Notes: generated by a model from the sequence alone, not told the origin. A stretch of 64,000 nt of DNA from a virus (IMGVR_UViG_3300020379_000218:32001-96000); one strand, 5' to 3'; shown: positions 37,209-62,645, numbered from the stretch's first letter. Numbers and translations: made by a program.

Positions 37209-38270
37209 ATGAAGATAGCGTTATTGAATGATACTCACTTCGGTGCGAGAAGTGATAGTCCTGCATTTATCAAATATTTTAACCGGTTTTATGACGAGAT
37301 ATTTTTCCCATACCTAGAAGAACACAAGATAACAACACTTATTCATTTAGGTGATGTTGTTGATAGAAGAAAGTTTATTAACTTTAATACAGCACATAAC
37401 TTTCAAAATAAATTCTGGAAAAGACTATGGGATATGAAAATAGATACTCATATTATACTTGGCAACCACGATACTTATTATAAGAATACAAACTCTATTA
37501 ATAGTATGCAACAATTGATTACTACTTTTGATGGTATCAATGAACCATTTATATATGAGAAACCAAAGACGGTTGAGTTTGATGGTCTACCTATACTATT
37601 CGTTCCTTGGATATGTCCAGAGAATGAAGAAGAAAGTCTATACGAAATAGAAAATTCACAAGCACAAATTTGTATGGGTCACCTTGAAGTTAAAGGTTTT
37701 GAAATGCACAAAGGACACTTCCAAGAACACGGACTAGAGATAGACTTATTTAAAAGATTTGACAAAGTATTATCTGGTCACTATCATAGAAAATCAGATA
37801 ATGGTACTATCTACTATCTAGGTACACAATACGAAATTACTTGGTCAGATTATCAATGCCCTAAAGGTTTTCATATATTTGATACAGATACTAGAGAACT
37901 TACAAGAGTGCCTAATCCTATTAATATGTTTAAGAAGATAACATATAACGATAAGAAAAATAACTATGCAAATATGGATATATCTGAATACGAAGATTGT
38001 TTTGTAAAAGTTATAGTAGAAGAAAAACAAGATGTAAATATGTTTGGTGAGTTTATAGACAGATTACATAATGAGATACATACACACGAAGTTAATGTCA
38101 TAGAAGATAGTTATAATATAAATTCAACTGCCAATATTAATATTGTAGACCAAGGTGAAGATACTTTAACCTTCTTACAAAATTATATTAATAGTTTAGA
38201 TACTGAACTAGATAAGCACAAGATGAATACAATAGTTAAAGACTTATATAATGAGGTGCAAGATAAGTGA
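37209..38270 (+). CDS. gp47: Recombination endonuclease subunit gp47 (Mre11/SbcD-like)
   Basis: DTHFG, HLGDVVDRR, GNHD, SGHYH. Confidence 0.95.
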   Translation: MKIALLNDTHFGARSDSPAFIKYFNRFYDEIFFPYLEEHKITTLIHLGDVVDRRKFINFNTAHNFQNKFWKRLWDMKIDTHIILGNHDTYYKNTNSINSMQQLITTFDGINEPFIYEKPKTVEFDGLPILFVPWICPENEEESLYEIENSQAQICMGHLEVKGFEMHKGHFQEHGLEIDLFKRFDKVLSGHYHRKSDNGTIYYLGTQYEITWSDYQCPKGFHIFDTDTRELTRVPNPINMFKKITYNDKKNNYANMDISEYEDCFVKVIVEEKQDVNMFGEFIDRLHNEIHTHEVNVIEDSYNINSTANINIVDQGEDTLTFLQNYINSLDTELDKHKMNTIVKDLYNEVQDK

Positions 38271-39982
38271 TAATTTTTCATAATATAACCTGGAAGAATT
38301 TTCTTTCAACAGGCAATACACCAATCAGCGTAAATTTAAGAGAAGCACCTACGACATTAATCATAGGTAGTAATGGGTCAGGTAAATCAACTTTACTAGA
38401 CGCATTGTGTTTTGCTCTCTTCAATAAACCTTTTAGAATTATTAAGAAAGACCAGATGGTAAATACTATCAACAATGCTGATACACTTGTTGAAGTTTAT
38501 TTTAGTATAGGTCCTAAAAAGTATAAAGTACGAAGAGGTATTAAACCTAACATATTTGAAATATACCAAGACGGCATTTTATTAAATCAGGATGCCTCTT
38601 CTATAGATTATCAAAAGTACCTAGAACAAAATATAATGAAACTAAATTACAGGTCATTTTGTCAAGTTGTAATTTTAGGTTCTTCTTCATATGAACCATT
38701 TATGAAGATGAGAGCAAGTTATAGGCGTGATGTTATTGAAGAGATACTTGATATTAAAGTATTTGCAAGTATGAACTTATTATTAAGAAGTAAACAACAA
38801 GACTTAACAAAAGAGATTACTACATTAAGACACCAAGTAGACTTGATTGAAAACAAAGTTGACTTACAAGAGAAACATTATAATGAATTACAAGGTAGAG
38901 ATACAGACGCTATATCTAAAAAGAAAGAAGACATAGAGAAAGCACAAGAACATAAAAGAGATTATATGTTGCGTATCAGTAGTCTTAATGAAGAGATTAC
39001 AAAGAACAAACTAAAACTAGAAGGCACAGAAGAAACTAAAAGTAAATTTCTTCAATTACAGAAACTAGAAAGTAAGATTGATACAAACTTAAAGACACAT
39101 AAAAAGGCACTTAAATTCTTTGAAGAGAATACTAATTGTCCTGTTTGTACACAAGAACTTGAACCTGGTTTCAAACAAGAGAAAGTAAACGAAGAGAAGG
39201 CTGCTGTAGATAAGTTAAACGAAGGTTATAAAAAACTATTAACTGAAATTACTAATACAGAAGAGAAGATATTAAATATAGACAAAGTATCTGAAACTAT
39301 TAGAAGTATAGAAACTAATGTTGCAAAACTAAACACAAGTGTTGATGAACTTAAAAGACATAGTGATAGAATACAAAACGAGATTGACTTGTTATCTGTA
39401 GAGGATGCTTCAGGCCTAAATATAAAAGAAGAGATTGTTAGACTAAAACAAGAGTTAGTCAAAACAAAAGAAGATAGAGACAAAGTTATTGATGAGAAAA
39501 AATATGTTGATGTATTAAGACAGATTGTAGACGATAGTGGTGCTAGAGCACAGATTATTAAGAAGTATATACCAGTTATGAATACACTTATTAATCAGTA
39601 TCTACAATCAATGGACTTCTTTATATCTTTCCATTTAGATGAAGAGTTTAAAGAAACGGTTAAGAGTAGACATATGGATTCTTTTAACTACAATAATTTT
39701 AGTGAAGGTGAAAAGATGAGAATAGACTTGTCATTACTATTCACTTGGAGAAGTATTGCGAAGATGAAGAACTCCGTCAATACTAACTTATTAATACTTG
39801 ATGAGATATTTGATAGTAGTTTAGATGGTCAAGGAACAGATGATTTCTTTAAGATTATCAAAACACTTACAAAAGAAAATATCTTTATCATATCGCATAA
39901 AGGAGATATAATGTTTGACAAGTTTACAAATATAATTAAATTTGAGAAATACCAAAACTTTACGAGGTTAGAAAATGTCTAA
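38267..39982 (+). CDS. gp46: Recombination endonuclease ATPase gp46 (Rad50/SbcC-like)
   Basis: GSNGSGKST, CPVC zinc hook, FSEGEK, LILDEIFD. Confidence 0.96.
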   Translation: MIIFHNITWKNFLSTGNTPISVNLREAPTTLIIGSNGSGKSTLLDALCFALFNKPFRIIKKDQMVNTINNADTLVEVYFSIGPKKYKVRRGIKPNIFEIYQDGILLNQDASSIDYQKYLEQNIMKLNYRSFCQVVILGSSSYEPFMKMRASYRRDVIEEILDIKVFASMNLLLRSKQQDLTKEITTLRHQVDLIENKVDLQEKHYNELQGRDTDAISKKKEDIEKAQEHKRDYMLRISSLNEEITKNKLKLEGTEETKSKFLQLQKLESKIDTNLKTHKKALKFFEENTNCPVCTQELEPGFKQEKVNEEKAAVDKLNEGYKKLLTEITNTEEKILNIDKVSETIRSIETNVAKLNTSVDELKRHSDRIQNEIDLLSVEDASGLNIKEEIVRLKQELVKTKEDRDKVIDEKKYVDVLRQIVDDSGARAQIIKKYIPVMNTLINQYLQSMDFFISFHLDEEFKETVKSRHMDSFNYNNFSEGEKMRIDLSLLFTWRSIAKMKNSVNTNLLILDEIFDSSLDGQGTDDFFKIIKTLTKENIFIISHKGDIMFDKFTNIIKFEKYQNFTRLENV

Positions 39983-40865
39983 AGATTTAAAAGATAATCC
40001 TACTACTGCTGTTCATACAGGCGACAGACAAAGAATGACGGTTGCTGAAGAAGAAAAATTTAAAGATGATATAATGAAACAAGCAGAAGAACAGATTAAA
40101 GCAGGTGATGTTGAAATTGCAAAAGAAGGTGAGTGGGTTGACCACGCCAACATCAAAGAAAAACTAGAAAAGATGAGAGACGAAGATAAGGCAAAAGAAG
40201 GTGTCGTAGAGGATATGACAGATAAGAATAAGTCTGTTGAAATCAGAAAAGGCATTGACCCTAAATCGTTTCAGTACGAATTATTACCACCACAGGATCC
40301 TAGAGTTAGACAACCTGTAGCACCTTTCAAAGATGAAATGCTAGAAGAGTATGGTCTAAAAAGTAGACAAGAACTTGTTGATGGTATGTTTGCTCTTATG
40401 CACAAATATGGTGGTATCGGTTTGAGTGCGATACAAATAGGTTTACCATTTAATATGTTTGTTGCAGGAGACCACGAATCAATAGAAAAGGGGTTAAAGA
40501 TAGCGGCCTTTAATCCTGTTATTATACAAGCAAGTGAAGAAGAAGTACTAATGAAAGAGGGATGCTTGACTTTTCCTTTCTTATTTGTTAGTATTAAAAG
40601 ACCTCGTAAATGTGTTATGAAATACGAAGATGAGAACAAAGATTTAAAAGAAGCACATTTAGATGGAATGATGAGTAGAGTTTGTCAACACGAATACGAC
40701 CATCAAACAGGTACATTGATGGTACAGAAAGTTAGTAAACTAAAACTAGACTTAGCATATAAAAAAGCAGAAAAGGAGATGAAGAAGTGGAGACGCTATC
40801 AGGAAGCAATCAAGTCCAGTCAGCCAGTGAAAATATCAAACCCTGGCAAAAAGGATTTGAGTTAA
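39975..40865 (+). CDS. def: Peptide deformylase with a roughly 100-aa charged N-terminal extension
   Basis: GIGLSAIQIG, EGCLT, QHEYDH motifs. Confidence 0.92.
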   Translation: MSKDLKDNPTTAVHTGDRQRMTVAEEEKFKDDIMKQAEEQIKAGDVEIAKEGEWVDHANIKEKLEKMRDEDKAKEGVVEDMTDKNKSVEIRKGIDPKSFQYELLPPQDPRVRQPVAPFKDEMLEEYGLKSRQELVDGMFALMHKYGGIGLSAIQIGLPFNMFVAGDHESIEKGLKIAAFNPVIIQASEEEVLMKEGCLTFPFLFVSIKRPRKCVMKYEDENKDLKEAHLDGMMSRVCQHEYDHQTGTLMVQKVSKLKLDLAYKKAEKEMKKWRRYQEAIKSSQPVKISNPGKKDLS

Positions 40866-41989
40866 GTTATTTAAAAGATTTAGAAAAGAGATTTAATTCT
40901 TACAACGAATATGCTCAGCACGAAATGAGCAAGTTTAAAAAGAATAATATAGCAGACGCCTTGTCAAAAGATGAGATACAACTTCTAGGCAAAGGTTTAA
41001 TACACTTCTCAAAAGTAAAAGTAAAATCAAACATCTTTATGTTCCCAGGTGTACTAATCGGTACTAAACTACCTGGCGATATTCATATTAAACATTTAGG
41101 TTATACAGAAGAATTTGATAAAAGAAATATTATCACTACATTAATGGAAGACGCTCAATACACTAATAACAATGTGTGGTTGTTTATTAACGAAGAGAGT
41201 GGACCTGATAAACATATTGCAACAGAAACAGGATTTGAGAAAGTCGGTACGAAGTATAATTCAGTTGCAGATATTATAGGTGTTTATTTTAGACACGCTA
41301 GTAATGTATTAGAAGATAGACAACACCCTAAAGTACCTGTCTATGAGAACTATACATTGAAACCTATGAATGTATCATTTAAAGATATTACAACACAACT
41401 TGCAAAACAACTACACGAAATGGAAGTTGAGTTTACTAATCACTATTCAAACTACAATAAAGCAAAGTCTTGGAGTGCAATCTCATTAAGAGGTTATAAA
41501 CCAGACTATAAGTTTATTACAAAACCTGTAGAAATGAATAAGAAGTGGAAAGAAGAAAACAAAGATGAACATTTTGAATTACAAGATACAGACTGGAGAC
41601 AGAAGTTTCCTTTAGTAGAAAAGATATTAGATGTATTTGAAACAGAAATACATAGAGTTAGATTTATGAATTTGAAACCAGGTGGTGGAGAATTACAAAG
41701 ACATACAGACCAAGTAGACCCAGACATAGGAATTGCAGATGGTAGATTAATGAGAATACATATACCTATCAAAACAAATCCAGATGTAGAGTTTACAAGT
41801 TGGTCTATATCAGGTTCTAAAGTGATGACTAATATGGAAGAAGGAAGTTGCTGGTACCTAGATATTAGAAAACCACATATGGCAATTAACAATGGTGAAG
41901 ACTGGAGAACACATTTAGTTATTGATGTAGTTGCTAATGATAAAGTGAGAAGTTTATTTAATGCTGACGCCCATAGAAAAATACGATAA
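40787..41989 (+). CDS. Fusion of a GNAT-like N-terminal domain and an Asp/Asn beta-hydroxylase-family 2OG-Fe(II) oxygenase
   Basis: C-terminal W.AISL, RVRFMNLKPG, HTD, RIHIPIKTN, KPHMAINNG...RTHLVID; N-terminal GFEKVG GNAT-like motif (weaker). Confidence 0.72.
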   Translation: METLSGSNQVQSASENIKPWQKGFELSYLKDLEKRFNSYNEYAQHEMSKFKKNNIADALSKDEIQLLGKGLIHFSKVKVKSNIFMFPGVLIGTKLPGDIHIKHLGYTEEFDKRNIITTLMEDAQYTNNNVWLFINEESGPDKHIATETGFEKVGTKYNSVADIIGVYFRHASNVLEDRQHPKVPVYENYTLKPMNVSFKDITTQLAKQLHEMEVEFTNHYSNYNKAKSWSAISLRGYKPDYKFITKPVEMNKKWKEENKDEHFELQDTDWRQKFPLVEKILDVFETEIHRVRFMNLKPGGGELQRHTDQVDPDIGIADGRLMRIHIPIKTNPDVEFTSWSISGSKVMTNMEEGSCWYLDIRKPHMAINNGEDWRTHLVIDVVANDKVRSLFNADAHRKIR

Positions 41990-42860
41990 TATATATTACA
42001 AACGAGACGATTTGTTTGCACCATATGGAGATGTCAATGGTGGTAAAATGCGACAGACAATTGCCTTGTTTGAAAAGTATAAAGATAAGATAAGAAATGA
42101 ACACAATAACGGAGTTATACAATCTGTTTCAGTACATAGTCCTACCGCTAGTGTTATCAGTAGAGTTGCGAAAGAGTATGGTTTTAAATCTATATTTGCA
42201 GTTGGTGGTACTAAACCTGAAACATTACAGAAACGCCATATAATGCACCTTGCACAATACTATGGTGGCGAGATAAGAATAGTTGCAGGACACGGTATCA
42301 ATAGTGTACTTGCAAAGAGAACTAAAGATATTATAGAAAAAGAAAAATATTTCTATACTTCTTTTGATAAATGGATTATGGAAGAACCTGAATTAATGTT
42401 AGAAACAAATGGCGAACAAGTGCAAAATCTACCAGATGAAATAGACAATTTAGTTATGAGTTGTGGTGTAGGTATTCAGATGTCTGCTGTTATGTATGGA
42501 TTAAAGAAGTATAATAAGAAAGTAAAAAGAGTTATCGGTGTCGGTGTAGGACCTGATAGAACAAAGAATATAAGAAGTTATTTTGGATTAGAACAGAATG
42601 ATTATCCTTTTGAATTTCACACACCAAAAACAAGTTATAGTACTCCTCTGAAAACTACAATAACAAATCCTAACTACACGGATTCAGAAGAGTACTATCC
42701 ATCAGAAAAATCATTTATGTTAGATGACTTATACGAAGCAAAAGCACATAAATGGATGTGTGAGAATATAAACATTTACGAAGGTACAAATGTCTTCTGG
42801 TGTGTCGGTAGAAGATTAAATCAAAACGAAGTACACGATATAACTGGAGGTATACAATGA
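41961..42860 (+). CDS. Fold-type II PLP enzyme (ACC deaminase/D-cysteine desulfhydrase-like)
   Basis: YYKRDDL...NGGKMRQ PLP lysine; SCGVG phosphate loop; LDDLYEAKA. Confidence 0.8.
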   Translation: MLTPIEKYDNIYYKRDDLFAPYGDVNGGKMRQTIALFEKYKDKIRNEHNNGVIQSVSVHSPTASVISRVAKEYGFKSIFAVGGTKPETLQKRHIMHLAQYYGGEIRIVAGHGINSVLAKRTKDIIEKEKYFYTSFDKWIMEEPELMLETNGEQVQNLPDEIDNLVMSCGVGIQMSAVMYGLKKYNKKVKRVIGVGVGPDRTKNIRSYFGLEQNDYPFEFHTPKTSYSTPLKTTITNPNYTDSEEYYPSEKSFMLDDLYEAKAHKWMCENINIYEGTNVFWCVGRRLNQNEVHDITGGIQ

Positions 42861-43396
42861 AATACGATATGACAACTTTCTTTAAAGATGGTTTCTATAC
42901 TGGTGATGTAGATATAAATGTACAACTATTTGATGATATAAAGTTTCCTAATATAGACTACAATCCTGAAGACTTAAAACTACCTGATAATGTAAAACAA
43001 GAGATTAAGAAAGTACAAGAACAACTAGAAGAAGTTATATCAGAAACATATCCTAAATTTGAACTTACAGAAGAACCTGGTTTATGGAACGGAGTAACCA
43101 AAGAGAATAATGAATTTCACAATGACTTTGTTGCAGGAGATAAATTCAATTCAAACATATTAGTATACCTAGATGAAGGTAACGATATGAATGAAAACTA
43201 TATTGAGATTGCAGGTGAAGACATTTTAGATAAAGATGGCACACCATATGGTGTAAGTAAGTGTAGAATATTCTGTAGACCAGGACAATTTGTCTGGTTA
43301 AATCAATCACCTCAATTTGAACATAGAGCAAACAACGGAAGTGGGAATAGAAGATTGATACACTTTGCATACTATATACCGGAGATTAAAAAATGA
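42857..43396 (+). CDS. 2OG-Fe(II) oxygenase-like protein
   Basis: FHND...ILVYLD...FEHRA...RR (HxD...H...R). Confidence 0.7.
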   Translation: MKYDMTTFFKDGFYTGDVDINVQLFDDIKFPNIDYNPEDLKLPDNVKQEIKKVQEQLEEVISETYPKFELTEEPGLWNGVTKENNEFHNDFVAGDKFNSNILVYLDEGNDMNENYIEIAGEDILDKDGTPYGVSKCRIFCRPGQFVWLNQSPQFEHRANNGSGNRRLIHFAYYIPEIKK

Positions 43397-44088
43397 AAGA
43401 TGTAATTAATAAGTTTCATCACGGTGACGCTTTTGATATATTTCCTAAAGTACCAGATAGAAGTATTGACTTAACATTTACAAGTCTACCTGATATATCA
43501 CAAGGTCCGTGGGGCAAAGACATAGAACAATACCAAGAGTTTCAAAATAGAAGTTGCGACCAGATGGCAAGAATTACGAAAGATGAAGGCTTCGTAGTTA
43601 TATCGCAAACAGATAGAAAGATTAACGGAGAGATATTACCTAATCATATAACATATTACAATGCAATGTTAAGAAATGGTTTTGCATTGAAAGACTATAA
43701 GATTATGGTAAGAAATCATCCTGTTGATAAAAGAGATATGTATTACTTCAACTATCAACACACACTTGTATTTACTAAAAAAGGTACAATCAAAAGAAGT
43801 GGTGATTGGTTAAAGAACATATTAGTATATGATACAAAGAGATTAGGAAATGTAAAAGGTCCTTTTAATCTCTATGTATGGAACGATAACTTTATTAAAC
43901 TTGTGGTTGATTATCTATCAAAAGAGAATGAAATAGTATTTGACCCATTTGCAGGTAGTGGAATAGTACCTTGGATTGCAAAAGAAATGAGAAGACGATA
44001 TATAGGTATTGAACTAGATAAAGAGGTTTTTGATAAATCTTACTTTAATCGTTTAGACCTGCTTGACAAGTTTGGGAAAGTAGTATAG
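43393..44088 (+). CDS. Amino (N4/N6) DNA methyltransferase, beta class, atypical catalytic motif
   Basis: IDLTFTSLPD (variant of TSPPY) N-terminal; VFDPFAGSG SAM motif; YIGIEL. Confidence 0.8.
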   Translation: MKDVINKFHHGDAFDIFPKVPDRSIDLTFTSLPDISQGPWGKDIEQYQEFQNRSCDQMARITKDEGFVVISQTDRKINGEILPNHITYYNAMLRNGFALKDYKIMVRNHPVDKRDMYYFNYQHTLVFTKKGTIKRSGDWLKNILVYDTKRLGNVKGPFNLYVWNDNFIKLVVDYLSKENEIVFDPFAGSGIVPWIAKEMRRRYIGIELDKEVFDKSYFNRLDLLDKFGKVV

Positions 44089-44091
44089 AAT
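44063..44091 (+). promoter_or_regulatory. Sigma70-type promoter
   Basis: TTGACA-17 bp-TAGAAT, 7 nt before ATG 44099. Confidence 0.7.
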
Positions 44092-44098
44092 GTCTATT

Positions 44099-44254
44099 AT
44101 GAATAAAAAAGAAAAAATATACGAAAGGAATCCGAACACAGGTGTTATTCGTTGGCGTTATGTAGGCGAGAGTCCTGATAAGTTTGGGTGGCCGAACTAT
44201 GGCAGAATATTGCGAGAAGGAAAAAAGAAGAAGAACACTAATAACATTAAGTAA
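44099..44254 (+). CDS. Small hypothetical protein (51 aa, MNKKEKIYERNPNTGVIRWR...), not in the ORF track
   Basis: Open frame filling the gap, directly behind a promoter (likely leaderless). Confidence 0.6.
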   Translation: MNKKEKIYERNPNTGVIRWRYVGESPDKFGWPNYGRILREGKKKKNTNNIK

Positions 44255-44255
44255 G

Positions 44256-44405
44256 ATGAAAATGAAAACACAACACAAAGTAGATAGAACAGATTATCAG
44301 GATGTAGCAGATTGTATAAGAAGTGACCAAGTACCTGCTAGTGCTATTGCAGAATACTTTACTGATAAAAGATTTTACAAGTGGTACAAAAAGAAATACT
44401 TATGA
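44256..44405 (+). CDS. Small hypothetical protein (MKMKTQHKVDRTDYQDVADCIRSDQVP...)
   Basis: Start 1 nt after the previous stop; ATGA coupling to the next ORF. Confidence 0.6.
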   Translation: MKMKTQHKVDRTDYQDVADCIRSDQVPASAIAEYFTDKRFYKWYKKKYL

Positions 44406-44686
44406 AAAAAGAGAGCATAGAAGACTTTTTAAAAAGAGGTGGTAAAGTAGAGAAGTTAAGACCTGGGTTTCCATTAGATGTCGGAAGTTTAGACAAGTCA
44501 AAGAAACCTAGATTTAATAAACAAGAAGTTGAGAGTGGCAAAGATAAAGGCACAGCGCCTATGCCAGACTTAACAAGTATCAGAAAACAGGAAGCATACA
44601 ATGGCAACACGGTTACATATTCAGATAGTGTGCCTGTAAATGAACCTGGTAAAGGTACTGGTAAATCAGATATGAGTGGTAAATAA
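44402..44686 (+). CDS. Hypothetical protein (IEDFLKRGGKVEKL motif)
   Basis: ATGA overlap; abuts the methyltransferase start. Confidence 0.65.
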   Translation: MKKESIEDFLKRGGKVEKLRPGFPLDVGSLDKSKKPRFNKQEVESGKDKGTAPMPDLTSIRKQEAYNGNTVTYSDSVPVNEPGKGTGKSDMSGK

Positions 44687-45871
44687 ATGAAGAAATTAAC
44701 AGATGTAAAAGGTAGTGCTAGTTTAGAAGATATAATGTCTGCCCAAGGCGTAGAAGTCAAAGGCGAAGAGAACATTACTAGTAAAGGAAATCTAAAAGGT
44801 TTTACAGAAGATGAAACTCAACTAGAAGAGAACATAAACGAAGTTTATAACTTCTGGCAAGAAAGAGGTTTTCCTTACTACAATACAGACCCAACTTGGC
44901 GAAAAGAAAAGATGGCGAAACTACAGGCTGTTAATTGTAAAGATTTATTAACTAAAGATAATGTAATTAAACCACACCAAGAAGGTCTATCACTTGCTTG
45001 GTCTTATATGCCACATAGTTTTGGTATCAGATGTGGTAAGATGAGAACTCCTATGGAGATATATGAAGATGAAGAACACTTTAAGAAAGGTATCAAAAAA
45101 CTATTAACTGGTTCTTTCTTTGGTAAGTATTCAGTAAGTGATTTAAAACCTGCCTCAAAGACAAAGAATGTATTAGAAATGTTTAAAGAAGGTATCACAA
45201 CATACAGGTCAGAGGAATCAAAACATAAAGCAGAAAGTGTAATGAGAAGTCTATTAAGAAGATATACAGGAACTCAATGTGTATCTAATTTCAGACCTAC
45301 AGCAGCTGCTTGTTTATATCAGAATTTTATGAAACCAGGCGAACTAGTCTGGGATATGTCAATGGGTTATGGTGGTCGTATACTAGGTGCGATTATATCA
45401 GATGTTAATTATGTAGGTACTGACCCAGCAACATTAACATTTAAAGGACTATGTGAGATTAAAGAAGACCACGCTAGACCTAATAGACAATACTTCTTAA
45501 ATAAGAAAGGTAGTGAAGTCTTTATACCTAAAGAAAATAGTTTAGACTTTGCCTTTACAAGTCCACCTTATTTCAATTGGGAACAATATTCAGATGACGC
45601 TGAACAATCATTTAAAAACTTTAGTACTAATGAAGACTGGAATAATGGCTTCTTACGAAAGACTATACAGAATGTTTTTACTGGTTTGAAACCAGGTAAG
45701 TATATGGGTCTTAATGTAGCGAACATTAAATCACATAAAACCTTTGAAGATGATACCGTGCGAATCGCCGTTGAGGAAGGCTTTGAACATACTGATACAT
45801 ACAAGTTGCAGTTGTCTTCACAAGAGAGTGGCGCTAAATACGAACCAGTGTTTATATTCAGAAAACCCTAA
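44687..45871 (+). CDS. SAM-dependent DNA methyltransferase, alpha order, SPPY (N4-cytosine-like)
   Basis: WDMSMGYGGR SAM motif preceding FTSPPYF. Confidence 0.85.
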   Translation: MKKLTDVKGSASLEDIMSAQGVEVKGEENITSKGNLKGFTEDETQLEENINEVYNFWQERGFPYYNTDPTWRKEKMAKLQAVNCKDLLTKDNVIKPHQEGLSLAWSYMPHSFGIRCGKMRTPMEIYEDEEHFKKGIKKLLTGSFFGKYSVSDLKPASKTKNVLEMFKEGITTYRSEESKHKAESVMRSLLRRYTGTQCVSNFRPTAAACLYQNFMKPGELVWDMSMGYGGRILGAIISDVNYVGTDPATLTFKGLCEIKEDHARPNRQYFLNKKGSEVFIPKENSLDFAFTSPPYFNWEQYSDDAEQSFKNFSTNEDWNNGFLRKTIQNVFTGLKPGKYMGLNVANIKSHKTFEDDTVRIAVEEGFEHTDTYKLQLSSQESGAKYEPVFIFRKP

Positions 45872-55059: not shown

Positions 55060-55502
55060 CAGACAATGTAAAATGGTCACCGGAAGATATGCTAGAGGTC
55101 ACAATCAAGCAACCTGACGATTTCCTAAAAGTAAGAGAGACATTAACAAGAATAGGTGTTGCTAGTCGTAAAGACAAAACACTATTTCAAAGTTGCCACA
55201 TATTACACAAACAAGGCAAGTATTACATAGTACACTTCAAAGAACTATTTGCTTTAGATGGTAAGAAAGCAACCTTAACAGACAATGATATTCAGCGTAG
55301 AAATACTATTGCAGTATTACTAACAGATTGGAACTTAATTACGATAGTAAAACCAGAGGCTGCTGAAAACAAAGCACCACTATCACAAATTAAAGTGCTA
55401 CCTTTCAAAGAAAAGAAAGAATGGAATCTTTCTGCCAAGTATAATATTGGTAAGAAGTTAGACGAAAAAACCGAAGACAAAGTTTCAAATGAAGGTAAAT
55501 AA
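55056..55502 (+). CDS. regA: Translational repressor RegA
   Basis: DDFLKVRETLTRIG, QSCHILHKQG.YYIVHFKELF. Confidence 0.96.
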   Translation: MTDNVKWSPEDMLEVTIKQPDDFLKVRETLTRIGVASRKDKTLFQSCHILHKQGKYYIVHFKELFALDGKKATLTDNDIQRRNTIAVLLTDWNLITIVKPEAAENKAPLSQIKVLPFKEKKEWNLSAKYNIGKKLDEKTEDKVSNEGK

Positions 55503-56995
55503 TGCAAGTAAAACAATTCAGCGACTTCCTATCTGAACAAACATTAGATAGAGAAAACAAACCAATAACTATTGCAGTTATCACAAAGACAAATCCTAAT
55601 CTCAAAAAGAGAAAGGTTGGTGGTAAAGAAAGTAAAGAGTTAACGGTTAAGTTGATTGATGAAGCTTGCCAAGCAGTAAATCTAAAGTGTGTAGTTATTG
55701 AAACTAGACACGCAATTATCACAGGTAAAGACGAAGAAAAGAATACTTTGACCGTATATAACTATGACGGCAAAGATAACGAACATACATTTATAGGTAA
55801 AGATACCGTTTGTATTACTAGAGCAGGTTCTGTAGAAGACGAAAGTGGTTTATCAATCGTTTCTGCTTTTCAAAACTCTGGTTCATTTATGTGTAATACA
55901 AGAAATGCAATGTTAACTTGTAATAACAAATTGACTACTGCTTTATTATTTGAAAAGTTTGGTATACCAACACCGAAGACAGCGTTTGTATCTAACGAGA
56001 AAAACATAGATGACGCTTTAGAACTAATTGGTGGTGTAGATAAGTTTCCAGTAATATTAAAAACACTAACAGGTACACAAGGTATCGGAGTTGTAAAGGT
56101 AGAGAGTTATGATTCTCTAGTTTCAACTATTCAAGCATTGTGGAAACATAATGCAGAATTACTAATACAAGAATTTATGCCTAGTGATTTTGATATTAGA
56201 ACTTTCGTAGTAGATAACAAGATATTTGCAAGTACAAAAAGAATTCAAGGCTCAGACGATTTTAGAACTAATACTCATAGAGGTGCTGAAGCAGTACCAT
56301 ATAAGTTAAAAGACGAGGAAATAGAGGTCATACTCCGTGCTAGCAGGGCGTCAAAGGCGTATCTTTGTGGAGTTGACCATATCATACATAAAGGCAAACC
56401 TTATGTATTAGAAGTAAATGGTTCACCAGGAACTGGTGCAGAATATGAAGGATATATCTATAAAGACTTCTATTCGGATCCAGAAACAAAAGGTTCAATT
56501 AAAGGTGCTCAACTTGTAAAGAATTTAATCAAGTGGGTATCAGATAGAAAGAATTGGGATAGACAATCTATTGCTGAAGTAGGTTGGTTAGAAACAATAG
56601 AAGTCGGCGACATTGGTAAAATGAGAGCGAAGATGGACACTGGTAACGGTGCTCACGCTTGTTCAATGCACGCTGAGAATATTAAAGTAGAAGGTAAAAA
56701 GGTAACCTGGAAGTACAACGGCAAGACATATTCGGCACCGAAGTACGGGGAATCAAAAGTCTTTCGTGCTAACGCAGAAGGTGAAGAACCATCAGAAGTT
56801 AGAACAACGGTACTACTTGACCTTACCTTTAACGGTTTCACATATCCTGATATTGAATTCGGACTTGACCAAAGACCAAGGTCTGGTTCCGATGTTCTAC
56901 TTAATAGAGAAGTAATCAGAATGTTCAATGCGTCTGTTAATCCTAATAGAACATTTGTACTATCAAAAAGATTACCGCCTATTGACAAAGACTAA
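55502..56995 (+). CDS. rimK: RimK-family ATP-grasp ligase fused to a C-terminal RimB-like retropepsin-type protease
   Basis: NKL.T, P.ILK...GTQGIGV, QEF, DIR, FRTNTHRG, GVD, EVNGSPG; C-terminal VGWLE...AKMDTG...VLL.R. Confidence 0.85.
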   Translation: MQVKQFSDFLSEQTLDRENKPITIAVITKTNPNLKKRKVGGKESKELTVKLIDEACQAVNLKCVVIETRHAIITGKDEEKNTLTVYNYDGKDNEHTFIGKDTVCITRAGSVEDESGLSIVSAFQNSGSFMCNTRNAMLTCNNKLTTALLFEKFGIPTPKTAFVSNEKNIDDALELIGGVDKFPVILKTLTGTQGIGVVKVESYDSLVSTIQALWKHNAELLIQEFMPSDFDIRTFVVDNKIFASTKRIQGSDDFRTNTHRGAEAVPYKLKDEEIEVILRASRASKAYLCGVDHIIHKGKPYVLEVNGSPGTGAEYEGYIYKDFYSDPETKGSIKGAQLVKNLIKWVSDRKNWDRQSIAEVGWLETIEVGDIGKMRAKMDTGNGAHACSMHAENIKVEGKKVTWKYNGKTYSAPKYGESKVFRANAEGEEPSEVRTTVLLDLTFNGFTYPDIEFGLDQRPRSGSDVLLNREVIRMFNASVNPNRTFVLSKRLPPIDKD

Positions 56996-60319: not shown

Positions 60320-60811
60320 ATGAAATTATTTAAAGACAAGACAGATGACTTTTTTAGATGGTTAAAAGGAACCGAACTAGTTGAACTAGATGATATAGAT
60401 GTATCAGAGGATCCTGTAAGACCAGAGTTAACATTAGGTTGGCGTATCTCTAAAGGTAGAAAAATATTTGGATTAAAGTACGAAGAAAATATAGAAGGTA
60501 TAATTTGTATTGCGTTTACAAATGACATACCATCAAATGTAAAAGAATTAGATATGATGTCTGAACTTGCAGACCTAAAGAACGAGAAACGAATTGCAAT
60601 TGCATATACGGTATGGTCTCGTAAGAGAGGTGCAGGTAAAGAGATTATCAGTAAGGTATTAGAATATGCAAAAGCAAACTATATTGAAAGAGTGATTACA
60701 TTATCACCTCTTACACCTATGGCAACACACTTTCATATTCGTAATGGTGCAAAACAAATATCAATCAATAAGGAAACGCAGAACTTTGAGTATAAACTTT
60801 CCAGTAAATAA
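60320..60811 (+). CDS. Conserved phage protein, GNAT-like
   Basis: DPVRPEL, AYTVWS..RGAGK, TLSP.T.MA..FH.RNGA (acetyl-CoA-binding-like motifs). Confidence 0.6.
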   Translation: MKLFKDKTDDFFRWLKGTELVELDDIDVSEDPVRPELTLGWRISKGRKIFGLKYEENIEGIICIAFTNDIPSNVKELDMMSELADLKNEKRIAIAYTVWSRKRGAGKEIISKVLEYAKANYIERVITLSPLTPMATHFHIRNGAKQISINKETQNFEYKLSSK

Positions 60812-61334
60812 AAAGTATAAGGTAATATATGCTGACCCACCTTGGTCATTTAAATCATTTAGTCCTAAAGGTGATGACAGAAATCCTAATCAGCATTATC
60901 AAACATTAGAACTTAAAGATATAACAGACTTACCTGTAAAACAAATTGCAGATGACAATTGTACTTTATTAATGTGGGTTGTAGACCATAGTTTAGATTT
61001 AGCGTTTGATGTTATAGACGCCTGGGGTTTCCAATACAAGACGGTAGGATTTACTTGGGCAAAAACAAATAAGAATAAACTAGGTTTCTTCACAGGTTTA
61101 GGATACTGGACAAGAGGTAATCCTGAAATGTGTTTACTTGCAACAAAAGGTAAACCTAAAAGAAAATCAAAATCAGTACCACAATTAGTCGTATCAAATA
61201 GAGAACGACATAGTAAAAAACCAGATATTATGTATCAACACATAGAAAATTTATTATCAGGTCCTTACATTGAACTTTTTGCTAGACAAAGAAGAGAAGG
61301 TTGGGATGCCTGGGGAAATCAAATAGAGGCTTGA
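60744..61334 (+). CDS. MT-A70-family adenine methyltransferase
   Basis: IYADPPW, LLMWV, WGF.Y, F.W.K, HSKKP, IELFAR, WGNQ; true start may be TTG 60786. Confidence 0.9.
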   Translation: MVQNKYQSIRKRRTLSINFPVNKKYKVIYADPPWSFKSFSPKGDDRNPNQHYQTLELKDITDLPVKQIADDNCTLLMWVVDHSLDLAFDVIDAWGFQYKTVGFTWAKTNKNKLGFFTGLGYWTRGNPEMCLLATKGKPKRKSKSVPQLVVSNRERHSKKPDIMYQHIENLLSGPYIELFARQRREGWDAWGNQIEA

Positions 61335-61409: not shown

Positions 61410-62645
61410 ATGATGAAGACCCTAAACCTTAAAGATTACGCAGATGAAAATGGTTTGCCTATTATGGACACTATCCAGTTTGATAGATGGACAGAAGAAC
61501 TAGGTAAAGAAAAATTTAGAGAATTACTAGCAGAATATATTGCTACTGAAAGACCAAAGTTTCCTCTCAAACAAATATCATATGAAGATATGAGAAAAAG
61601 TATTATTGACTTATCAAAGTTTGATACTTCAAAGATATGTACGCCTAAAGAACAGATTGAAAAGAAAGTATTTGAGAAGTATGATGATTACGAATATGGT
61701 TTTGATAAGTATGGTCTAGGATTGATTGACGCTCCTAGTACATATAATATATCATCTAATTATTTTCATCAACATTTAAGATTAAATTGTAGTAGTTATG
61801 GTTTCAAAGCACCTATAGATGTATGGCAAAATGGTAATGCAAAAGATGTATGGCGTTGTCTAGGTCCTATATGGCGTGGTATTAATAGTGAAAGACATTT
61901 AAAAGAAGGTACTTATATTAGTGCATTTAGATTAGGTACATATATTGCAACACAATTTAAACCTGTTGTTGCGAAAACTTTATATGATATGACAAATGCA
62001 AGAACGGTATTAGATACCTCTTGTGGTTGGGGTGATAGACTTGCAGGTTTCTTTTCTAGTAGTGCAGAAGAATATTATGGTTGCGACCCAAACCCTAACA
62101 CATATAAACAATATATGAAACAGATTGAAGAGTATAGTAAATTCTTTCCTAATAAAAAAGTTAAGATATATAATTGTGGTGCAGAAGATTTACCTTATGA
62201 TGAATTACCAGATATAGATTGTGCCTTTACAAGTCCACCATACTTTAGTACTGAACAATATAATAAAGGTGGTGATAAAGAAGAAAATCAATCGTGGTTT
62301 AAATTCAACGAATACGAGAAGTGGAGAGACGACTTCTATTTACCTGTTGCAGAAAAGACTATGAGTAAATCAAAGTTTATGTTAGTCAACATTATGGATC
62401 CAAAGATTAAGAATGTTAGATATAGGTCAAGTGATGAATTGATAAATAGTCATAGAGAAAAGTTTTTAGGTCAAATTGGTATGGTTATTATGCAAAGACC
62501 TCAAGGTAATGCTAAGTTTAAAACTAAAGAAGAACTGAACGAATTTATGGCAATGAAATATATTGAGAATGTTTGGTGTTTCGGTCCTAAAGATTATGAT
62601 TTCTTCTCTTCTAGTAGAAAAGGTACATTAGAAAACTTTTTATGA
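61410..62645 (+). CDS. SAM-dependent DNA methyltransferase, alpha order, SPPY; paralogue of 44687
   Basis: TQFKP, LDTSCGWGDR, FTSPPYF. Confidence 0.85.
   Translation: MMKTLNLKDYADENGLPIMDTIQFDRWTEELGKEKFRELLAEYIATERPKFPLKQISYEDMRKSIIDLSKFDTSKICTPKEQIEKKVFEKYDDYEYGFDKYGLGLIDAPSTYNISSNYFHQHLRLNCSSYGFKAPIDVWQNGNAKDVWRCLGPIWRGINSERHLKEGTYISAFRLGTYIATQFKPVVAKTLYDMTNARTVLDTSCGWGDRLAGFFSSSAEEYYGCDPNPNTYKQYMKQIEEYSKFFPNKKVKIYNCGAEDLPYDELPDIDCAFTSPPYFSTEQYNKGGDKEENQSWFKFNEYEKWRDDFYLPVAEKTMSKSKFMLVNIMDPKIKNVRYRSSDELINSHREKFLGQIGMVIMQRPQGNAKFKTKEELNEFMAMKYIENVWCFGPKDYDFFSSSRKGTLENFL

Follow-up and report, generated by a model that had tools for sequence, protein, structure and literature searches.

A methyltransferase-led gene cluster of an uncultured marine T4-like phage as a candidate DNA base hypermodification module

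The window analysed here is a stretch of 64,000 nucleotides (IMGVR_UViG_3300020379_000218:32001-96000; positions are counted from its first letter) and is part of a 109.5-kb IMG/VR virus record (G000) of an uncultured marine T4-like phage. Behind the genes for gp46 and a peptide deformylase (def) it carries a cluster of five enzyme genes (Table 1): A (a GNAT-fold domain joined to an Fe/2-oxoglutarate (2OG) oxygenase), B (a pyridoxal 5'-phosphate (PLP) enzyme), C (a second Fe/2OG oxygenase), and D and F (both with methylase folds). On balance, this cluster is probably a methyltransferase-led, post-replicative DNA base hypermodification module of an undescribed kind, the product of which would be larger than a methyl group. 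What we count in support are natural fusion proteins, the family to which B belongs, the genetic linkage among relatives, the context of related genes in cultured phages, the location and timing of the cluster, a GG/CC-context signature in the genome and precedents for GNAT enzymes in phage DNA modification. No description of such a module was found in the full-text literature searched.

A sequence-only reading of the window had described four overlapping genes plus an SPPY methyltransferase after gp46-def. Indeed, all five enzyme genes lie where it had placed them, on the + strand, and their enzyme identities are supported by Pfam, PHROG, motif and predicted-structure matches. The same reading had taken A–D as the unit and had expected the genes to co-occur in relatives. 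They do belong together, but the comparison of contigs shows that the conserved core is A plus F and not A–D. Among 29 distinct A-bearing contigs with enough flank, 26 have an F-like gene at most 4.6 kb from A, with identities ranging from 90% down to 37%. In the most divergent pair (37% identity), which is found on an Acidobacteriota contig, F abuts A. The two genes are translationally coupled in G008, a complete phage genome of 40.9 kb with terminal repeats that has no gene of the cluster other than F and A. About half of the contigs have B directly next to A, and D as a rule comes after B (exceptions are D without B in L022 and B without D in L009 and L064); C is sporadic. B, D, and C are thus accessories of the F-A core. 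The arrangement is conserved in many relatives and is therefore not due to chance. On a contig of a Verrucomicrobiales metagenome-assembled genome (L072) an A-B-D cassette is found, in which D is 78% identical to D of the window and A and B only 55 and 62% to their counterparts. These values suggest that the accessory genes move between lineages. In another contig (L012:10267-12236), A and F are followed by a gene of the KDO8P/DAHP-synthase family and by a serine hydroxymethyltransferase gene.

The long proteins among the best 150 matches of the A profile include natural fusions of the same parts. For example, P0268 is a single polypeptide composed, in this order, of ParB_N, N6_N4_Mtase, PALP, and an A-like GNAT-AspH part. 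The architecture methylase-PALP-A is found in P0251, P0257, P0271, and P0275, ParB_N-methylase-A in P0250, P0252, P0289, and P0300, and methylase-A in P0262 (with TSPPY), P0269, and P0302. In BLAST comparisons the PLP parts of the fusions are B-like along nearly all of B, and the methylase parts are of the F type, with DPFAGG...RRY.G..L as motif I and F[ST]CPPY..E.YSDD as motif IV. In four of the fusion proteins the B-like and A-like parts are inserted between the methylase motifs I and IV. The contigs bearing the fusions resemble phage early regions. The fusions speak strongly for a single pathway in which F, B, and A work on a common substrate. That the enzymes act together, as had been proposed before, thus finds support both in the natural fusion of A, B, and a methylase and in the F-A adjacency that persists down to 37% identity.

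The best family match of B is phrog_3650 (E = 3.4e-35), which is also matched by gp226 of phage ViI (E = 2.5e-241) and by gp2 of mycobacteriophage Vincenzo (E = 2.7e-106). In BLASTP, B shares 29% identity with gp226 over 217 amino acids (E = 6e-27), and Lys29 of B aligns with Lys92 of gp226, which has been named as the probable PLP lysine (PMC8989533). B also gives a match to the Pfam family PALP (E = 2e-8, 34.2 bits), slightly below the cut-off of 35. ViI gp226 has been demonstrated to decarboxylate O-serinyl-thymidine in DNA (PMC8989533), and together with M6 gp52 it belongs to the PLP-dependent decarboxylases of amino-acid:thymidine conjugates in DNA (PMC8989533; PMC5889632). Two metabolic assignments of B were tried and rejected: as cysteine synthase/cysK it scored 21.7 bits against a cut-off of 351 (TIGR01139), and as D-cysteine desulfhydrase/1-aminocyclopropane-1-carboxylate deaminase 21.4 bits against 289 (TIGR01275). 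The sequence-only reading had allowed that B might be a plain D-cysteine desulfhydrase; B misses the curated cut-off for this by more than 260 bits. By these scores B groups with the DNA-acting gp226 family rather than with metabolic PLP enzymes. It should be noted that phrog_3650 and phrog_12517, the latter matched by F, are both labelled "unknown function" in PHROGs.

DNA, which had also been proposed before, is the likely substrate of the module, the argument being indirect but convergent. It appears likely because gp226, the only studied relative of any of the components, acts on DNA, because the fused or neighbouring partner has a DNA-methylase fold, often with ParB_N, because the same parts sit in DNA-modification contexts in cultured mycobacteriophages, and because there are precedents for GNAT enzymes or acetyltransferases in phage DNA modification. 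Thus, Mom of phage Mu, a GNAT enzyme, takes glycine from Gly-tRNA and attaches it to N6 of adenine in double-stranded DNA (PMC13219725), and gp48 of PaMx11 is an acetyltransferase in a thymidine hypermodification pathway (PMC8989533). In mycobacteriophage Vincenzo (L042, 1-2275), gp1 is a ParB-like protein with a weak N6_N4 methylase match in its C-terminal part and the next gene product, gp2, is a PLP enzyme with a strong match to phrog_3650 and the annotation "carboxylate deaminase"; gp1-gp2 is a case of the methylase-PLP pair in a cultured phage. Mycobacteriophage AlanGrant likewise combines a ParB-methylase with a phrog_3650 PLP enzyme. Mycobacteriophage LilMcDreamy (L001, 1-3759) encodes a ParB-like gp1, a gp2 with a weak TET/JBP match, an amino acid:DNA transferase (AADT) as gp3 (PF18724, E = 2.7e-12) and, next to it, an A-like oxygenase as gp4. 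This region looks like an unannotated ParB-linked thymidine hypermodification cluster. A link to 7-deazaguanine through the annotation of LilMcDreamy gp2 as "queuine tRNA-ribosyltransferase" was considered and dropped, since Pfam gives a weak Tet_JBP match and none to tRNA-guanine transglycosylase.

Protein A matches the Pfam family Asp_Arg_Hydrox (PF05118) with 47.2 bits, the cut-off being 22.6, and its AlphaFold model (predicted local distance difference test (pLDDT) 90) has two domains. Residues 24-175 adopt a GNAT fold in the model (VIA Z 11-12; 2pc1 with Z 11.9, a root-mean-square deviation (rmsd) of 3.4 and 144 residues aligned; 2fia with Z 11.0); a TPR domain as in AspH is not present there. 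Residues 185-386 are modelled as a 2OG oxygenase (4p7x, Z 15.4; 7v4p, Z 15.2; AspH 8re5, Z 14.7), and the nearest folds to this part, with Z 14.5-15.4, are proline hydroxylases, the beta-hydroxylase of a nucleoside-antibiotic pathway and AspH. The metal and 2OG ligands (H306-x-D308...H364, R374, and H376) are invariant across 30 homologs. The family is large: 3,235 representative clusters are matched by the A profile at E<=1e-3, and 384 at E<=1e-30; abundant ocean T4-like phages are the source of many. A family for A does not exist in PHROGs.

D is a clear member of PF01555 (N6_N4_Mtase; 71.2 bits, cut-off 26.7) with an invariant motif I, DPFAGSG, and a match to DpnA 5hek (E = 8e-8). Its motif IV reads TSLPD and that of relatives with 48-60% identity TS(P/V)PD, so that the family as a whole has TS(L/P/V)PD: all members have Asp where the stacking aromatic residue would be, HPxxKP is degenerate, and neither D nor its relatives have the canonical motif IV (S/D/N)PP(Y/F/W). 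In F, motif I lies at about residue 223 (D223-x-S-x-G, invariant) and motif IV, TSPPY, at 291-295, and FTSPPY..E.Y is invariant in the alignment of the F family. F reaches 17.3 bits with PF01555, which is below the cut-off of 26.7, and its larger orthologs up to 28.6 bits; its match to phrog_12517 has E = 1.8e-13. The Atlas neighbours of F are viral clusters named cytosine-N4 methylases (score 0.99). C has no Pfam match, and in BLASTP no similarity was found between C and the 2OG-FeII_Oxy_3 gene of L013; the fold of C was settled through its predicted structure. The model (pLDDT 79.5) is over the whole protein a 2OG/Fe double-stranded beta-helix (Z 11-12 over residues 1-179; PHD2 2y33 with Z 11.8, rmsd 3.8, and 164 residues aligned; Foldseek E = 1.6e-5), and H88-x-D90...H156 is conserved in active copies. 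In two relatives (L033:9142-9549 and L034:8894-9301) shorter paralogs of C, in which HxD and the distal His are lost, stand beside C or replace it; these are probably inactive oxygenase-fold proteins.

A further line of evidence comes from the occurrence of restriction sites, counted over the whole record. CATG, ACGT, TCGA, CGCG, and ACWGT are completely missing (0 each, with 50-325 expected), GATC occurs 28 times instead of 303, and all 28 sites are GGATC or GATCC, 19 of them GGATCC. A flanking G or C is likewise found at 249 of 249 GTNAC and at 18 of 18 GATGC/GCATC sites; for GTNAC the chance of this context is 0.31 per site and the joint chance, by our own arithmetic, about 1e-127. ACNGT is present solely as ACSGT. 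Since CCATG is not rescued, protection falls on the 5' C of CpC or on its paired G; any base may follow CC, so the context can be as short as two bases. The signature is a genuine sign of a sequence-context-specific mark made by the phage. Many 6-mers, among them TCTAGA, ATGCAT, CTTAAG, TCAAGA, ACTAAG, and CACTGA, occur 0-2 times where 30-110 are expected. AGCT is found 118 times against 214 expected, and 27 of the 118 sites are CAGCTG where about 6 would be expected; this excess suggests a separate PvuII-type protection.

Which enzyme makes the GG/CC mark is a separate question. D was considered as its maker: in the first relatives with D all GTNAC sites (100%) were in context and in those without D they were not, but the link broke when more loci were included. 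In L066, which has D, 17 of 30 GTNAC sites are in context, and in the absence of D all GATC sites are (5/5 in L064 and 10/10 in pooled contigs lacking D). The GTNAC difference between relatives is lineage-specific avoidance and not an effect of D. The correlation of the CC-conditional bias with the cluster that the sequence-only reading had proposed as a check was thus not obtained with respect to D; the CC/GG mark of that reading is real and very strong, its link to the cluster is not borne out. The complete phage G008 shows no strong site avoidance in its k-mers and is uninformative on specificity. Between DNA polymerase and UvsX the window also encodes an MT-A70 methylase (60744-61334, E = 1e-28) and an F paralog (61410-62645) with 30% identity to F and the same AFTSPPYF motif, either of which could be the maker of the mark; a C5 methylase is not present. 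That F makes it, with or without A, is a tentative proposal, somewhat short of an even chance.

Folds, motifs, linkage, fusions, and the independence of 5-hydroxymethyluracil (hmU) are what the analysis shows; that the module acts on DNA, in which order and by what chemistry, we infer, and the order given by the sequence-only reading (methylation, hydroxylation, addition, decarboxylation) is likewise a proposal. F would bind DNA, flip the target base and put a first group on the exocyclic amine. A, the obligate partner of F, would then tailor this group, its GNAT domain acylating an amine or hydroxyl and its oxygenase hydroxylating a side-chain carbon. B, where present, would decarboxylate an alpha-amino-acid-type adduct in a PLP-dependent reaction, as ViI gp226 does, and D (with its variant methylase fold) and C (the second oxygenase) would add lineage-specific steps. 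An amino-acid-like side chain on the base is suggested by three components: by B, a PLP enzyme of the decarboxylase type, which requires a free alpha-amino acid moiety, and by the two domains of A, a GNAT of the amine acylase type and an oxygenase of the kind that hydroxylates amino acids. Such a chain could most simply, and with the most coherent chemistry, come from the 3-amino-3-carboxypropyl arm of S-adenosylmethionine (SAM), which a methylase-fold enzyme would transfer instead of the methyl group; this transfer would provide B, the GNAT domain and the amino-acid-type hydroxylase with an amino-acid-like substrate on DNA. Non-methyl transfer from SAM has precedents among enzymes with the class-I fold, such as TYW2 and spermidine synthase. 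The loss of the stacking tyrosine and of HPxxKP in D would fit an altered transfer reaction. In the complete form of this scheme, F and/or the Tyr-to-Asp enzyme D would transfer the aminocarboxypropyl arm to an exocyclic amine of a DNA base, for which no more context than the 5' C of CpC might be needed; B would decarboxylate the adduct and A would N-acylate and hydroxylate it. We regard the whole as a speculative proposal that is more probably wrong than right. The product of the module probably protects the phage DNA from restriction and may be the mark behind the GG/CC-context exemption of this genome.

Several findings weigh against a hypermodification module. The GG/CC signature cannot be assigned to the cluster, as it persists without D and as there are two other methylases in the window. 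The record is only 59% complete, and full-length A is absent from the phage records searched (GenBank records and INPHARED) and hence from any cultured phage among them; the sole match there is that of LilMcDreamy, with the oxygenase part only. For the GNAT domain of A there is no Pfam match (one fused relative gives a weak match to Acetyltransf_10), and a conserved Q/RxxGxG/A loop for coenzyme A is not evident in the alignment of A homologs. Most relatives have F and A but no B, and A therefore does not depend on an amino-acid adduct. TSPPY of F is canonical and plain methylation by F possible; together with the many F+A pairs lacking B, this means that methylation followed by oxidation and acylation is also a possible course. 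Finally, the nearest structures to A are of hydroxylases acting on free amino acids or proteins and, for the GNAT part, include N-terminal acetyltransferases such as Ard1 and Naa60, and A overlaps by 79 nt with def, a gene for protein processing.

The canonical TSPPY, the nearest structures to A and the overlap with def also speak for a rival explanation, in which F and D would be ordinary N4-methylcytosine or N6-methyladenine DNA methylases and A, B, and C a separate unit. The targets of this unit would be proteins, such as those of the translation apparatus, or else a small metabolite, and the genes would be neighbours only because they share an early region. The resemblance of C to prolyl hydroxylases with EF-Tu and ribosomal proteins as substrates, the RimK-like ATP-grasp protein in the window and the ribosomal protein S21 in relatives go in the same direction. 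We nevertheless consider this explanation unlikely, since A-like and B-like domains are fused to an F-type methylase and ParB_N, sometimes inside the methylase, since relatives at 40-47% identity have lost the adjacency to def and kept that to F, and since B belongs to the gp226 family and lies far below the cut-offs for cysK and D-cysteine desulfhydrase. The Asp_Arg_Hydrox family, to which A belongs, includes LpxO, and A could accordingly be an LpxO-like hydroxylase of lipid A/lipopolysaccharide, an auxiliary metabolic gene with unrelated neighbours; the KDO8P/DAHP-synthase-like gene two genes downstream in L012 would suit such a role. A lipid target is very improbable indeed: the longest helix in the A model has about 14 residues, which leaves none long enough to span a membrane, and the fusions with methylase, PLP enzyme, and ParB as well as the conserved partner F do not fit it.

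A hypermodification module could also be a part of what is already known. In this case the cluster would be the tailoring section of the hmU-based thymidine pathway, and the hydroxymethylase, the 5-hydroxymethyl-deoxyuridine (5-hmdU) kinase and AADT would be encoded in the 41% of the genome not sequenced. The homology of B to gp226, the neighbourhood of the LilMcDreamy oxygenase, with its AADT gene and a gene weakly resembling TET/JBP, and the incompleteness of the record all agree with this. The 109.5 kb of the record, however, contain no match to ThyA-like proteins (PF00303), AADT (PF18724/aGPT-Pplase) or TET/JBP (PF12851), and no homologs of the ViI kinase and transferase gp243 and gp247 (tblastn, phmmer). 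In the complete phage G008, which carries F and A, matches to ThyA-like proteins, AADT, and TET/JBP are likewise absent. In addition, the partner of A and B in the fusions is a methylase and not a kinase or AADT, and the near-total avoidance of many restriction sites argues against a genome-wide base replacement. We therefore hold membership in the hmU pathway to be quite improbable: judged from gene content, the module is not the known thymidine pathway. The statement of the sequence-only reading that the cluster fits no pathway that can be named agrees with the lack of an hmU source, AADT, and TET in both the record and its complete relative.

The surroundings of the cluster are those of a T4-type phage, the record containing gp23, UvsY, UvsW, gp47/gp46, gp45, gp44, a family-B polymerase, and UvsX. 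Upstream of A on the + strand lie gp47 (37209-38270), gp46 (38267-39982), and def (39975-40865), after which seven + strand open reading frames (ORFs) follow in the order A, B, C, D, a 54-aa ORF, a 101-aa ORF, and F. All junctions from A to D overlap (A/B by 29 nt; B/C and C/D by 4 nt each, of the ATGA type), and the 54-aa ORF begins 1 nt past D. A starts with GTG at 40787, 8 nt downstream of AAGGAG. The late promoter TATAAATA, of which ten mark the structural region, was not found between 33.4 and 51.6 kb, and therefore the cluster would be expressed together with the early/middle DNA-metabolism genes. The 101-aa protein matches the RNA polymerase (RNAP)-binding domain of SutA with E = 8e-4, and its ortholog in L063 has the same faint match. 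At 55502-56995 the window encodes the RimK-like ATP-grasp protein (E = 3.6e-37) amid replication genes; in relatives, genes for ribosomal protein S21 and Hsp20 are also found nearby.

Table 1. Genes and other features of the cluster, with positions in the window
Feature	Position	Strand	Assignment	Basis
A	40787..41989	+	GNAT-fold domain + AspH/proline-hydroxylase-type Fe/2OG oxygenase; core gene	Pfam, model, motifs
B	41961..42860	+	fold-type II PLP enzyme, ViI gp226 family (phrog_3650); accessory	phrog_3650, BLASTP, PALP
C	42857..43396	+	small stand-alone Fe/2OG oxygenase; sporadic accessory	model fold, HxD...H
D	43393..44088	+	beta-class N6/N4 methylase fold, motif IV TSLPD; accessory, usually with B	PF01555
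Promoter match	44063..44091	+	sigma-70-like, TTGACA-17 nt-TAGAAT, upstream of the 54-aa ORF, the 101-aa ORF, and F	11/12 consensus, match only
54-aa ORF	44090..44254	+	module membership uncertain	tblastn conservation 75-100% in relatives
101-aa ORF	44381..44686	+	kept in close relatives; module membership uncertain	weak SutA RNAP-binding-domain match
F	44687..45871	+	amino-methylase-fold enzyme, TSPPY; core partner of A	motifs, phrog_12517, fusions

In the literature searched, the amino-acid-type hypermodifications of phage DNA that have been reconstituted begin at 5-hydroxymethyl-pyrimidines or, in the case of Mom, at an aminoacyl-tRNA. The module would add a third entry route, led by a methylase fold. 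If the proposal is correct, it would mean new DNA enzymology, with an AspH-type hydroxylase and a GNAT enzyme working on DNA and possibly a non-methyl transfer from SAM, and new restriction-resistant bases of relevance to sequencing and to phage-host ecology. Should the transfer of the SAM arm be true, a new class of SAM-derived, amino-acid-like DNA hypermodification would be widespread in marine phages. Through its GG/CC signature, this genome gives an unusual opportunity to approach sequence specificity.

Of the known systems, the thymidine hypermodification clusters, which combine a core of 5-hmdU kinase (5-HMUDK) and AADT with PLP, radical SAM, FAD, and acetyltransferase tailoring enzymes, are like the module modular, phage-encoded, post-replicative, and combinatorial, and PLP and acetyltransferase-fold tailoring enzymes are found in both. 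The module differs in that its core consists of an amino-methylase fold and an AspH-type oxygenase, is independent of hmU and probably targets an exocyclic amine rather than C5 of uracil. With ViI gp226 and M6 gp52, B shares phrog_3650, the PLP lysine and a location in a phage DNA-metabolism region; B is shorter than gp226 (299 against 424 amino acids) and is accompanied not by a 5-hmdU kinase, AADT, and an hmU source but by methylase folds and the GNAT-oxygenase fusion. Mom of phage Mu resembles A in having a GNAT-fold domain in a phage DNA-modification role, whereas in A the GNAT domain shares a polypeptide with an oxygenase and has a methylase as its coupled partner. Among the ParB-fused N6/N4 phage DNA methylases and ParB-dependent DNA-modifying enzymes (PMC13229309), likeness is seen in the fused relatives with ParB_N before an F-type methylase and in Vincenzo gp1, which has the same ParB_N-methylase architecture; F of this phage lacks ParB_N, and PLP, GNAT, and oxygenase steps are added, which such methylases are not known to have. 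Finally, A resembles AspH, bacterial proline hydroxylases and the beta-hydroxylase of a nucleoside-antibiotic pathway (7v4f) in its oxygenase fold (Z about 15) and in the HxD...H and RxH motifs. It differs from these in having neither TPR nor the apparatus for epidermal growth factor (EGF) substrates, in being fused to a GNAT domain and in being genetically coupled to DNA methylase folds.

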